Source: a bacterium (GTDB taxonomy: Bacteria; Patescibacteriota; Minisyncoccia; UBA6257; GWB1-50-10). From it: a DNA stretch of 42,041 nucleotides. The notes under the pieces were generated by a model. That model made no database searches. It saw only the letters and a program-made list of their open reading frames with translations, and had not been told where the DNA came from. The position numbers were made by a program, and so were the translations under genes. This document shows positions 17,081 through 20,045 of the stretch, piece by piece. Position 1 is the stretch's first letter; every line of letters starts with the position of its first letter. Location: contig DAICZV010000001.1 in assembly GCA_027310975.1 (NCBI GenBank), positions 1-42,041 on the forward strand, in the 5' to 3' direction.

Positions 17081-17986
17081 TTATTTTTGTACCCGAACTA
17101 TCTTGAAGTTCTTCTTTATCTTATGCAGGACGAAGAGCAGGATGACGAGCAGGACTATCAATCCGGCGGCTTCTTGCCAGGGAAAAGCGAAGAAATGGAG
17201 GGTGGCGGTTTGAACGCCGCTTTGGGGAATGTTCAATGACAGCGTGGCCGTGAACGGCCCGAAGAGGTAGCGGCTCGGCAGCGCGGCTGTGAAGGTCCGG
17301 TCGTAGCCGGGGAAGACGATACCGGACTCAAAAGGCACGACCGCGGTCCCGAAAAGCGGCCCGGTCAGCGTTATTTGGCCTTCCGGATTGAAATGGGTGT
17401 TGCCGGTATTGTTAACAGTGAACGAGAAGGCGGCCGGCCCGTGGGAGAGGTAGGAACCGGGGCCGGTGAAATCGGCGATGTTGCCCGTCGCGTAAGAAGC
17501 GCCCGGAACGTTAACGAGGACCACCGAACCCACCCGGCCGGATATGCCGACGCCGGATGAGGCCGGATTGCCGGTCACCGTGAGGCCCCGGAAAAGGATG
17601 GCGCCGTAGTGGCCGCCCGGTTCGCCGTTCTGCGGCACGGTGATGGAGAACGGCACCTGCCGGCGCTCTTGAGGCGCGAGGGTGAACTCCGTCCGGCTGA
17701 TATTTATCCAAGCCGTGAGTCCGTGGGGAATTTCGGTTTGGACCAGGTCAATGGAGCCCTGGTTCCCGCCCGCGATATTCTCCACCTCCGGCTGGACGCC
17801 GATCGGAAAATCATTCGGGTTGATGACGGTCAGGGTGTCGGAATAGGTCTCGCCCGGAGCGATGGTGACGTTAAACTTTATAGGATATAGCGAAATGCCC
17901 ACCTGTGCGTTCGCCAAACTGGGTAATAAAAAACTTAGTGCGATGACACTAAGGGTTATGAGAAAAACGGGGCGGATTTTGTGCAT
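17081..17986 (-). CDS. CscA/DUF916-DUF3324-like cell-surface protein with C-terminal TM anchor
   Basis: Signal peptide and two beta-sandwich-like halves (YPIKFNVTIAPGETYSDTLTVINPND...; EPGGHYGAILFRG). A C-terminal TM helix is followed by the basic tail HKIKKNFK. The architecture matches the anchor protein of Firmicute WxL/Csc loci. Confidence 0.45.
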   Translation of the reverse strand: MHKIRPVFLITLSVIALSFLLPSLANAQVGISLYPIKFNVTIAPGETYSDTLTVINPNDFPIGVQPEVENIAGGNQGSIDLVQTEIPHGLTAWINISRTEFTLAPQERRQVPFSITVPQNGEPGGHYGAILFRGLTVTGNPASSGVGISGRVGSVVLVNVPGASYATGNIADFTGPGSYLSHGPAAFSFTVNNTGNTHFNPEGQITLTGPLFGTAVVPFESGIVFPGYDRTFTAALPSRYLFGPFTATLSLNIPQSGVQTATLHFFAFPWQEAAGLIVLLVILLFVLHKIKKNFKIVRVQK

Positions 17987-18013
17987 GGATCGCTTCGCCG
18001 GCGAGCGCGACGC

Positions 18014-18676
18014 TTACGGGTTCGTTATCGCCGTTATCGTGATACCGCCGGTGTAGCTGGTTGCCTGCTGAGTGGCCGGAGCGTCGGCCACCACCTTAAG
18101 AACGACCGTCTGGCTCGTGCCGACATAAGTGCTGGTTGAAGCCACTGTTGCCGTGCTCGTCGGGAAACCGGCGTAGAGCGCTTGCGGATCGGTGTCGGCG
18201 CTGCCCCACCAAGTCGCATTATAGAGGCCGGCCGTCGTACCCGTTTGATAGACGCGGAAGTGAAGGTTGGCGCCGACATTTACGGAAGAGGTGGCGTTGT
18301 TGGTGCCGTTCCACGACGTTGCGTCCGGAAAAGCGATGGTCCCGGAAGCGAGGGTGGATGTACTGCTGTTGCGGTTTATCTTAAGATTCCAGCCGGTCGC
18401 GGCGTTGGTCGCGACAGTCGCGCTTGAAGTGGCCGAGACCGGAGCGCCAGGCGTGAGGGACGCGAGATTAACAGTTGACGTTGAAAGGGTGAGCGTTATC
18501 GTCTGGTTCACCGTGACGTTGATCGTCTGGCCGGTGGACGTGGAAACCTGGGCTGAGGCCAGGTTTACGACCGGACCGAAGGAGGCGCTCAAAAGTAAAA
18601 AGGCAAAAAGCCCTAAGCCCGCCCCCAGGACCTTCAGGAATCTAAGCGCTTTAAAGCGGCTTATCTCCTCCCTCAT
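18014..18676 (-). CDS. WxL-like domain surface protein (about 220 aa)
   Basis: Signal peptide, a proximal GWNLKI motif and the C-terminal YTGGITITAITNP (compare the WxL consensus YxxTLTWTLxxxP). Start taken at the second ATG (18676), 7 nt after TATAAT. Confidence 0.5.
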   Translation of the reverse strand: MREEISRFKALRFLKVLGAGLGLFAFLLLSASFGPVVNLASAQVSTSTGQTINVTVNQTITLTLSTSTVNLASLTPGAPVSATSSATVATNAATGWNLKINRNSSTSTLASGTIAFPDATSWNGTNNATSSVNVGANLHFRVYQTGTTAGLYNATWWGSADTDPQALYAGFPTSTATVASTSTYVGTSQTVVLKVVADAPATQQATSYTGGITITAITNP

Positions 18677-18683
18677 TGCTTGC

Positions 18684-18692
18684 ATTATACCA
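18684..18692 (-). promoter_or_regulatory. Extended -10 TGGTATAAT, 7 nt before the ATG (leaderless-type)
   Basis: Minus strand TGGTATAAT-GCAAGCA-ATG. Confidence 0.5.
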
Positions 18693-18734
18693 TAATGACA
18701 TTGCGCCGTTTGCAGGCGGCCTGTTGATAATTAT

Positions 18735-20045
18735 TTAAGGGTTGGCGATGACGGTAATAGTGACGCCGCCCGAATAATTTAAGGCCTTTTGGCTCAAAGG
18801 AGCGTCGGCCCGGTAAAGGATGGTGGAGGTGGAGGTGCCGTTATTGGTGGAGGTGGCGTTCACGATGGTGAGCGTTGATGTCGGCGTGCCGGCATAGAGC
18901 GCCGTACCGCTTGCGTCGCTTGCGCCCCACCAGAATGAACAGTAGTTGGCGGTCGTGCCGGATTGCTGGACCCGGAAGGACAAGGTTTGACCGGGCGCGG
19001 TCGTGCCGTTCCCCTGCCCCGAGGCGCAGCCGGTGCCAGGATTCCAGGCGGAATAATCCGGGAAGGTCGTCGTGGAAGAAGCGAGCGTTGACGTCGGTGA
19101 GTTGCGTTTTATCTGCAAACTGTAACCGTTCGTTCCGCCGGAGATAGTAACCGTGGCGGTCGTCGTCGCCGTGACCGGCGCGCCGGGCGAAAGTCCCGGC
19201 AGATTTACAGTGGCAGAGTTTAAAGTGAGCGAGATTGTTTGGGCGCTGGCGGAGAGTGTTGCTTGCGGATATTGGGAATAGACAAAATTCGCCGCGCTCC
19301 CGGCGTTCGTAACCCGGAAGCAATAGGTGGCGCCCGCAGTGGAGCTCGCGACCGCCTGGATGTCGTATTCCAGTTCCACGAAAGAGTCGCTCGGAAGCGT
19401 TAGCGCGCCGGTTTGGTTTGAAACGTCCCGCACTCCCCCGTTCGGCGTGAGAAAAGTATGGTTGGCATCGGTCACGCCGCCGGTCGTCGTCGCAATATTG
19501 GTCGTATCGGCTCCGTCCGTGAGGTTCGCCGAGTTAAACATCGTCCAGGCGCCCGTGCTCGTTACGGCGGAATAAGAAGCGGTGGCGCAGGAAGACACCA
19601 AAAGCCCGTACTCTATCCGGAACTGCTGGCTGGTAAACGACTTGATGGTTCCGCCGGCATTCGTTATTTCCACCCGCAATCGGATGCTGGAGTTTTGGTT
19701 CAAGCTCGCGAGAACGGCGTCTTCACTTGCCGCCGCCGTGGACGTCGTTTCGCCGCCGTTGTCATTGCGCCAGTGGTAATGAACGAGAGCGTAAGACGGC
19801 GCAACCGGCTGGAAGAGCATCCGCAGAATGCCGGGGATGAGCCAAAGATCGGCGGAGGTGGAAAGCCCCAGGGCATTCACTGCACCGTTGTTGAATATGG
19901 AAAAACTAGTGGAGGTTGACTTGCCGGCCACGCTCCCGACGTCGCCTCGGAGGAAAAGGTTGGCGGATGAGGCGTCAAAGGCCGAAGCCGGACTTAAGCA
20001 CAGCAGTGAAAATATGACGACGGCTGCCGTGAGGATATTTTTCAT
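18735..20045 (-). CDS. Large WxL-like domain surface protein with an N-terminal WRNDNGGE beta-sandwich module
   Basis: Signal peptide MKNILTAAVVIFSLLCLSPASA. The C-terminal 170 aa align with the 18014 gene (GYSLQIKRNSPTSTLAS..., YSGGVTITVIANP). The ATG at 20045 overlaps the upstream TGA as ATGA. An alternative start lies at 20060. Confidence 0.5.
   Translation of the reverse strand: MKNILTAAVVIFSLLCLSPASAFDASSANLFLRGDVGSVAGKSTSTSFSIFNNGAVNALGLSTSADLWLIPGILRMLFQPVAPSYALVHYHWRNDNGGETTSTAAASEDAVLASLNQNSSIRLRVEITNAGGTIKSFTSQQFRIEYGLLVSSCATASYSAVTSTGAWTMFNSANLTDGADTTNIATTTGGVTDANHTFLTPNGGVRDVSNQTGALTLPSDSFVELEYDIQAVASSTAGATYCFRVTNAGSAANFVYSQYPQATLSASAQTISLTLNSATVNLPGLSPGAPVTATTTATVTISGGTNGYSLQIKRNSPTSTLASSTTTFPDYSAWNPGTGCASGQGNGTTAPGQTLSFRVQQSGTTANYCSFWWGASDASGTALYAGTPTSTLTIVNATSTNNGTSTSTILYRADAPLSQKALNYSGGVTITVIANP

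Follow-up and report, generated by a model that had tools for sequence, protein, structure and literature searches.

Two pilus systems, first described separately in 2026, are the closest known counterparts of the operon considered here, which consists of seven tightly packed genes, all on the minus strand (20569 down to 13286), in a 42,041-nucleotide stretch of Patescibacteria DNA (the whole of this stretch is called the window in the following). The first is the Elr pilus of Enterococcus, in which WxL proteins are reported to be pilins that assemble by donor-strand exchange (DSE), with the DUF916/DUF3324 protein ElrE as their chaperone (Sleutel et al., bioRxiv 10.64898/2026.10.17.759780). 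The tip protein ElrA has a C-terminal WxL domain without a donor strand, and the base protein ElrB has only the donor strand together with an LPxTG anchor. This type of system was reported by Sleutel et al. as confined to Bacillota. Their screen of RefSeq reference proteomes demanded PF06030, PF11797 and PF13731 and would miss the locus in the window.

The second system is the Pam pilus of Candidatus Mycosynbacter amalyticus, a bacterium of the candidate phyla radiation (CPR; Troman et al., PMC13278184). Its components are PamA/B/E, PamT, PamC/D and PamR. The pilins (PDB 25PZ and 25QA for PamA/B) have two domains, with the donor strand directly ahead of a truncated immunoglobulin-like (Ig) domain, PamT is a tip protein without the strand, and PamC and PamD are PapD-like chaperones with a transmembrane (TM) anchor. 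PamR, which has an extra N-terminal strand and a TM helix, acts as both terminator and anchor, and the pili are partly shed. Troman et al. call these pilins exclusive to the CPR and are silent on DUF916/WxL as well as on dockerins and cohesins. Neither preprint mentions the system of the other, there is no mutual citation, and no work joining DUF916 or WxL with the CPR was found among the top-ranked literature matches listed. CPR bacteria spend their lives attached to other cells, with most of the attachment organelles still to be identified.

We consider it reasonably probable that the products of six of the genes in the window (20060 to 13286) form a surface fibre of the Elr/Pam type, which would be assembled by DSE with the help of a chaperone and without an usher, and which is most likely thin and adhesive. 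The evidence comes from the chaperone, from a domain shared by two secreted proteins, from the division of the domain family into two subunit classes, and from a gene order that is kept across the phylum.

The chaperone and the shared C-terminal domain

The third of the six genes encodes a 301-residue protein which, judged by its sequence and its structure model, is a chaperone of the DUF916/WxLIP type. It matches PF06030 with 32.6 bits (cut-off 27.3; 34.8 bits in the search of the genome), and 32 of 33 relatives match this family too. The initial annotation had assigned it the CscA/DUF916-DUF3324 architecture, with a signal peptide, two beta-rich halves, a C-terminal TM helix and a basic tail. 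These features are all borne out by the sequence and by the AlphaFold2 monomer model (predicted local distance difference test, pLDDT, 86.7), which shows a pair of beta-sandwich domains followed by a helix (residues 270-293), and the TM helix is kept throughout the alignment of the family (A4). The DUF916 part of the assignment holds. A second Ig-like domain is present by fold, but PF11797 (DUF3324) gave no match at E ≤ 1 in the window chaperone or in the 33 relatives. PF00345 (PapD_N) had no match among these relatives.

Among PDB structures, Foldseek ranks 9i25_C ("WxLIP from Enterococcus faecium locus A bound to long WxL") first for this model, with an E-value of 2.2e-10, and the next fibre-related matches are the chaperone-usher chaperones DraB, CfaA, CsuC, SafB, FimC and Caf1M, with TM-scores of at most 0.57 on the target. 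The family profile also finds EfmWxLIP1 by sequence (E 0.013). A candidate for the strand with which the chaperone would complete its subunits, GRVGSVVLVNVPG, is strongly conserved, with G150, R151, G153, L157 and V160 nearly invariant and G162 invariant; its role is suggested by analogy with the WxLIP model of Hassan et al. 2023 (PMC10599100) and with the Elr preprint. The possibility of an RbmA-like protein was also considered and rejected. RbmA is second by E-value, but its TM-score is 0.27-0.33, compared to 0.5-0.57 for the pilus chaperones.

The two secreted proteins encoded by the preceding genes, of 441 and 223 residues, have a C-terminal domain of ca 170 residues in common, as had been noticed at the outset. 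Residues 274-441 of the former and 53-223 of the latter are 50% identical in BLASTP (E 2e-40), and the motifs quoted for the two proteins are indeed there: ...ATGWNLKINR... with the C-terminal end YTGGITITAITNP in the 223-residue protein, and ...TNGYSLQIKR... with YSGGVTITVIANP in the 441-residue one. A profile search of 1.84 billion cluster representatives gives a domain family with 619 members at E ≤ 1e-3, of which 264 remain at E ≤ 1e-10, in proteins of 114-2480 residues, and the domain extends to the last residue of the protein in 156 of 186 cases.

The argument for a WxL domain that had been drawn from these motifs is weaker than claimed. The proximal motif, taken over 189 domain sequences, reads G-[W 37%, Y 35%, F 24%]-x-[L/V/I], with the three aromatic residues about equally common, and the distal position, which is Trp in WxL proteins, is mostly Tyr (48%, followed by Ile and Phe with 17% each) and never Trp. 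Neither of the Trp-x-Leu motifs (proximal GWxL, distal TWTL) is conserved across the family. The Trp in WWG is invariant (189/189), and a Gln (188/189) and a Tyr (188/189) are nearly so. Searches of the PDB with three pilin profiles returned no Pam or WxL chain, the sole match being a 29-residue stretch of a GH123 enzyme (E 0.22). The terminal strand, DVPxxQxxGxYxGxI, occurs also in unrelated beta-sandwiches such as the N-terminal domain of GH123, and this match shows that it is a general beta-sandwich feature. Pfam and NCBIfam searches with both subunits gave nothing beyond a faint DUF4402 signal (E 0.34), which 9 of 62 relatives also show, the best of them with an E-value of 0.002; this family is mentioned in none of the papers searched.

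The AlphaFold2 monomer model of the 223-residue protein (pLDDT 87.8) is confident from residue 61 on, and residues 53-60 form no strand in it (pLDDT ca 77). Its better-scoring Foldseek matches are mostly DSE subunits, namely CfaB, TasA, the PapG pilin domain, CsuE, CanA, FimG and Caf1. We have also examined whether the protein belongs to a TasA/camelysin-like family. TasA is the second hit, but with an E-value of 7e-3 and a TM-score of only 0.33, and to our knowledge TasA systems have no chaperone gene, so this assignment was rejected. TasA remains a functional analogue of the pilin.

It is important to point out that the kinship of the domain with WxL is reached indirectly. A Pfam WxL match is lacking and the direct profile comparison is marginal (both are weighed below), but the domain can be connected to WxL through intermediates from the CPR itself. 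PF13731, the Pfam WxL family with a gathering score of 25 bits, has matches in 30 of 401 sampled Patescibacteria genomes, ten of them above the Pfam cut-off; a six-frame search of the present genome gave nothing. The Pfam-positive CPR proteins are mostly secreted and 190-215 residues long, and many adjoin CPR DUF916-type chaperone genes. Examples, from the loci L102-L121, are L112:3719-4369 and L103:3557-4153. The aligned set of these intermediates (A7), with a PF13731 match in 18/18, several of them above the cut-off, matches the Firmicute WxL alignment (A3, built from 24 sequences) with a probability of 97.5% and an E-value of 8.5e-12 over 142 columns. The window family (A5) in turn matches A7 with a probability of 94.4% and an E-value of 9.3e-8, a score reached by 0 of 60 shuffles, and the alignment of close relatives (A2) matches it on the C-terminal strand with E 3.3e-5. 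The distal Trp is missing in the intermediates too.

A relaxed alignment of the window family to Firmicute WxL is colinear end to end. A global profile alignment of our own with shuffled controls, which replaced the global mode of hhalign because the alignment of the latter was meaningless, places the two 4.2-5.9 standard deviations above block-shuffled controls, compared to -0.03 to 2.2 for control comparisons with chaperone domains. ElrD was translated from the construct given by Sleutel et al., and a search of the PDB with an ElrD-type WxL profile failed to recover the WxL chain of 9i25. In view of the transitive matches through A7, the domain appears to be homologous to WxL. It can best be classed as a member of the WxL superfamily that has diverged very far and lies outside the Pfam family as defined. 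The model of the window family does not detect the Pfam-positive CPR subfamily, which means that the CPR would have at least two WxL-superfamily pilin lineages. Together, the Pfam-positive subfamily and the divergent window family would place the Elr and Pam systems under one superfamily.

This homology chain to WxL and DUF916 is also what favours the function that had been proposed initially, namely a WxL/Csc-type cluster whose domains bind peptidoglycan non-covalently, with the DUF916 protein as the peptidoglycan-binding partner. Such binding is what the older literature gives for WxL domains (PMC9772566). However, the lack of conservation of both Trp-x-Leu motifs speaks against it, as do the fold matches to fibre subunits and pilus chaperones. 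Moreover, the proposal has been overtaken by the Elr work of 2026, which recasts WxL as the fold of DSE pilins, and by the description of the Pam pilus in the CPR. Peptidoglycan binding is therefore not likely to be the function of the domain, and we consider a cluster of this kind to be highly improbable.

Subunit classes and the possible tether of the proposed fibre

The members of the domain family fall into two classes. The small ones consist of a signal peptide, a few polar residues, an alternating hydrophobic strand (T-I-N-L-T-V-N and variants), two residues, and then the first strand of the domain. This alternating strand is found directly upstream of the domain in 80 of 94 small members and in 19 of 92 large ones, and in many of the large members a conserved motif, Y-x-x-[YI]-P-[EQ]-[IA]-T, stands instead at the end of the preceding domain. 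The 223-residue protein is of the strand-bearing class and the 441-residue protein of the strand-less one, and in the BLASTP alignment of the two an 8-residue gap adjoins the candidate donor strand. Such a split into strand-bearing and strand-less subunits is the pattern expected for a polymerising subunit and a tip subunit.

We now turn to the mechanism that these components suggest. All subunits would be exported by Sec, and the chaperone would stay in the membrane by virtue of its C-terminal helix. In the manner of PapD and WxLIP, it would lend each subunit one of its own strands, so that the incomplete Ig-like fold of the subunit is made whole. Having an acceptor domain but lacking a donor strand, the 441-residue protein would start the fibre as the distal adhesin. 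One or many copies of the 223-residue pilin may follow, the shortest chain being tip, pilin and base. The 384-residue protein encoded next, which has an N-terminal strand and no acceptor domain, would probably end the chain and be fastened by its dockerin to two membrane proteins of the cohesin family.

A few observations on the large family members can be added. The payload of the 441-residue protein, ca 240 residues long, has no Pfam match, and no Pfam domain was found in the payloads of nine large family members. Residues 27-270, which contain the stretch HYHWRNDNG and a recurring S-[ST]-x-F motif, are found again in giant proteins of 1272-1875 residues (phmmer E 1e-26 to 1e-28; L007:2167-7794 and L011:10233-14051). 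As to the 19 large members that keep the amphipathic strand, such as P0234, P0261, P0219 and P0280 (430-1216 residues), they may become part of the fibre instead of capping it, by analogy with an E. faecium adhesin for which Sleutel et al. propose fibre incorporation.

Another option considered was a static surface display, in which the DUF916-type membrane protein permanently holds two anchorless proteins by strand complementation and no polymer is formed. This is exactly what Hassan et al. proposed for WxL and WxLIP, and it would agree with the fact that the genome has only one chaperone gene and one small subunit gene. However, it leaves unexplained why a conserved amphipathic strand is present on the small and mostly not on the large subunits, and why the dockerin protein, which has no acceptor domain, also carries one. 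In addition, the Firmicute system behind the model has since been shown to polymerise (Sleutel et al.). We thus regard static display as unlikely.

The candidate for the base of the fibre is the 384-residue protein. Pfam identifies in it an FN3 domain, a Big-type Ig domain and a two-repeat Dockerin_1 domain, and the pilin model finds no acceptor domain of the pilin type. Its mature N-terminus, QTVPASLNLSVKVVVLPL, resembles a pilin donor strand, and homologues of the protein carry a similar strand straight after the signal peptide (NVTITIN, NITVTVQV, VSFSVSV, INLTVRV, VDISVSG). The two TM proteins encoded downstream are confirmed by profile comparison as members of the cohesin family: a profile built from the family of both finds the PDB cohesins 5aoz (E 1.1e-4) and 5m2o (E 4.8e-4), and Pfam Cohesin (PF00963) matches 15 of the 34 family members. 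Dockerin and cohesin genes co-occur in 63 loci. The dockerin protein sits at the position equivalent to that of the LPxTG base subunit, and by analogy it could be the counterpart of ElrB and PamR, a strand-only subunit that ends the chain and tethers it through a dockerin-cohesin joint. Taken alone, this terminator and anchor role is put forward tentatively, and we would not call it the probable one. The conservation of the module suggests a new kind of tether for a donor-strand fibre.

Three homologues of the 384-residue protein end in a TM helix rather than a dockerin, and no cohesin genes lie nearby (L013:12424-13788, L017:11058-11945 and L019:4382-7429). They have a basic tail and are PamR-like as described.

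One can also envisage that the fibre forms, but that the FN3-dockerin protein and the cohesin proteins make up an independent plug-and-socket display, the fibre being tethered only via the chaperone, or shed. The cohesin proteins share the alternating strand at their start, so the strand by itself is not specific; in loci whose WxL subunits are Pfam-positive, dockerin and cohesin genes were not seen within ca 8 kb; and partial shedding is known from the Pam pili (Troman et al.). Against such an independent display, the chaperone is followed by the dockerin protein and then by the cohesins in most of 80 loci from different CPR classes, the homologues with a TM helix have it in place of the dockerin and are then without cohesins, and ElrB and PamR provide two precedents for a base that combines a donor strand only with an anchor. 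On balance, this scenario is rather unlikely, without being negligible.

It is important to note that several results weigh against the DSE fibre itself, or against parts of it. PF13731 gives no match at E ≤ 1 in either window protein, nor in 38 close and 62 diverse family members, and the direct hhalign comparison of the window family with Firmicute WxL is marginal (P 0.002-0.03), covering only the region around GWxL. Foldseek finds only weak matches for the pilin model (best E 3.9e-3, TM-score ≤ 0.5), and the WxL chain of 9i25 is absent among the 50 matches listed, which counts against a close structural match. Compared to the Elr donor-strand consensus, [S/T]8-x-[G/A]10-x-[V/I]12-x-F14, 85% of the small members show the alternating T-I-N-V/L-T-V-N, without the terminal Phe and without the long Pro-rich linker, and the N-terminal strand of the pilin could just be the first strand of the fold. 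The start of the cohesin proteins with a like strand has been mentioned. A pattern scan of the open reading frames (ORFs) of the genome found no LPxTG substrate, though one sortase gene is present elsewhere in the genome. The locus is connected with Pam by its architecture, by its phylum and by hits of the pilin model on ORFs of 350-420 residues in other CPR loci, the two systems being compared by description and not by sequence. Finally, strand exchange and polymer length are what we infer from the components, as the structure models, of the 223-residue protein and the chaperone, cover monomers only.

The LPxTG scan did return two matches, which were discarded as false positives, since they are membrane-protein-like ORFs and not surface proteins.

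Conservation and layout of the locus

The operon is conserved across Patescibacteria. The chaperone family is present in 202 of the 401 sampled genomes, often in several copies, and a pilin-domain ORF was found near the chaperone in 18 of 20 sampled loci, usually adjacent to it. With a chaperone gene in about half of the genomes, the group probably has in this fibre one of its main surface structures. Species genomes were scanned as well and yielded 365 loci; the gene counts were taken on the best 80 of these, which are titled Paceibacterota, Saccharibacteria, Uhr-, Magasanik-, Jorgensen-, Nealson-, Beckwith- and Berkelbacteria, CPR2 and WWE3. A homologue of the 384-residue dockerin/Big protein is present in 70 of the 80, adjoining the chaperone in the gene lists, cohesin-like TM proteins in 64, and pilins, as far as they are detectable with the narrow pilin model, in 54. 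Most of the ten closest loci retain all seven genes in this order.

In many CPR loci (L005-L008, L013, L017, L040, L066, L090 and others) the order is chaperone, an ORF of 350-420 residues with a C-terminal pilin domain, a second chaperone, and the dockerin protein, a layout that is nearer to the published Pam layout than that of the window. Contigs titled "uncultured Gammaproteobacteria", "Pseudomonadales" and "Dehalococcoidia" also carry a CPR-type operon (L034, L067, L072, L081, L084, L090, L095, L097, L099-L101). They are probably bins with wrong labels and no sign that the operon occurs outside the CPR.

The genome to which the window belongs, that of an ultra-small CPR bacterium, has a size of 628 kb and is 94% complete, and the named relatives of the operon proteins are all from Paceibacterota, Minisyncoccia or another CPR lineage. 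The features of the locus are collected in Table 1, where the start of the second membrane anchor has been set at the ATG at 15037. The first gene of the operon, which is not among the six assigned to the fibre, encodes a 175-residue protein with no Pfam or NCBIfam match, and in 9 of the 11 closest loci (L022-L032) it has the same place. A second copy of this protein is fused to the C-terminus of a 505-residue protein of the upstream unit (26887-28404; phmmer E 3e-14).

Table 1. Features of the operon and its upstream border, with positions in the window.
Feature	Position	Strand	Description
Terminator-like hairpin	20589..20622	-	Strong, 14 pairs, T-run; closes the upstream unit, operon begins just downstream
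First operon gene, 175-residue protein	20042..20569	-	N-terminal TM segment, Pro-rich stretch, 2-Cys domain
Candidate tip adhesin, 441 residues	18735..20060	-	Signal peptide, ca 240-residue N-terminal payload, C-terminal acceptor domain
WxL-like (pilin) domain of 441-residue protein	18738..19241	-	Residues 274-441, to the C-terminus of the protein
Candidate pilin, 223 residues	18014..18685	-	Signal peptide (..ASA|Q), short polar stretch, donor strand, WxL-like domain
Candidate N-terminal donor strand QTINVTVN of 223-residue protein	18506..18529	-	Residues 53-60
WxL-like (pilin) domain of 223-residue protein	18017..18505	-	Residues 61-223; motifs GWNL..R, WWG, PATQ..SYTGGITITAITNP-COOH
Membrane-anchored chaperone, 301 residues, DUF916/WxLIP type	17081..17986	-	Two Ig-like domains
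PF06030 (WxLIP_PGBD / DUF916) match in chaperone	17591..17875	-	Residues 38-132
Candidate chaperone donor (G1-like) strand	17501..17539	-	GRVGSVVLVNVPG; after low-confidence loop, role by analogy
C-terminal TM helix of chaperone	17108..17179	-	Residues 270-293, then basic tail KIKKNFKIVRVQK
Candidate base/terminator subunit, 384 residues	15924..17078	-	Signal peptide, extra N-terminal amphipathic strand, FN3, Big-type Ig, C-terminal type I dockerin
Extra N-terminal strand of 384-residue protein	16968..17021	-	QTVPASLNLSVKVVVLPL; residues 20-37, ahead of complete FN3 (Pfam match from residue 38)
Dockerin_1 domain of 384-residue protein	15945..16085	-	Residues 332-378; DVNGDGRVNIVD / DLNSDGMVSLTD
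Membrane anchor 1, 301 residues	15013..15918	-	N-terminal cohesin-family domain, C-terminal TM helix
Membrane anchor 2, ca 580 residues	13286..15037	-	Cohesin-family domain, Ig domains (Big_13), TM helix, cytoplasmic coiled-coil tail

Comparison with known systems

The locus has in common with the Elr/WxL clusters of Bacillota a large protein with a C-terminal acceptor, a small subunit and a two-Ig chaperone with a C-terminal TM helix. The chaperone matches PF06030 and has WxLIP as its best PDB fold, the subunit domain is linked to WxL by profiles through the CPR intermediates, the tip has no donor strand, and the base subunit has a donor strand and no acceptor domain. The differences are that the window subunits have no PF13731 match and the distal Trp is absent in the whole family, that PF11797 is not detectable in the chaperone, and that the donor strand lacks the terminal Phe and is separated from the domain by two residues, compared to a Pro-rich linker of ca 40 residues in Elr. 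Furthermore, a dockerin and membrane cohesins take the place of the LPxTG anchor, and the phylum is Patescibacteria, whereas Elr-type systems have been reported only in Bacillota.

With Pam, the locus shares the phylum-level group, Sec-exported Ig-like subunits for which DSE is inferred in the window, and a PapD-like chaperone anchored by a C-terminal TM helix, with no usher. In both, a truncated Ig domain is directly preceded by the donor strand, the tip is without the strand, and the base has an extra N-terminal one. The hidden Markov model of the pilin also matches the C-terminal domains of ORFs of 350-420 residues located between two chaperone genes in loci labelled Saccharibacteria. ATP synthase genes, which have been described at pam operons, were not seen within 6 kb of the Saccharibacteria loci. 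The pilin in the window is a single domain and lacks the N-terminal nine-strand sandwich of the Pam pilins, there is one chaperone as opposed to two, and the tip bears a payload of ca 240 residues. The base ends in a dockerin, not in a TM helix, and genes for TM proteins with cohesin domains follow it.

The classical and archaic chaperone-usher pili (Pap/Fim, CFA/I, Csu and Caf1) resemble the present system in the folds of the chaperone and subunit models and in the free C-terminus directly after the last strand, the likeness of the subunit being at the level of the fold only (E ≥ 4e-3). CPR cells have a single membrane. Unlike the chaperone-usher pili, the system in the window has neither an outer membrane nor an usher (none of the seven proteins of the operon has a usher-type Pfam match), and its chaperone is tethered to the membrane and has no PF00345 match.

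The proposed tether, finally, can be compared to the type I cohesin-dockerin pairs of cellulosomal scaffoldins (PDB 5aoz, 5m2o), with which it shares a two-repeat C-terminal Dockerin_1 and, by profile, domains of the cohesin family. In the window, no enzymes are attached, the cohesins are carried by TM-anchored proteins of a CPR cell, and the proposed cargo would be the base subunit of a pilus, which is so far undescribed.

The results join two pilus systems that were first described apart from each other. One can speculate that the WxL/Elr pili of Firmicutes and the pili of the CPR are one ancient usher-less DSE system of single-membrane bacteria, in which a Paceibacteria-type fibre is fastened by a strand-donating base whose dockerin is held in membrane cohesins. 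We regard this as a possibility somewhat short of an even chance. If true, it would contradict the report that confines the system to Bacillota, and the fastening by dockerin and cohesin would be a device that has not been described so far. As for the kind of system, it was described in 2026, and the locus in the window differs from the known examples by its single-domain pilin, its single chaperone and its dockerin-cohesin module.

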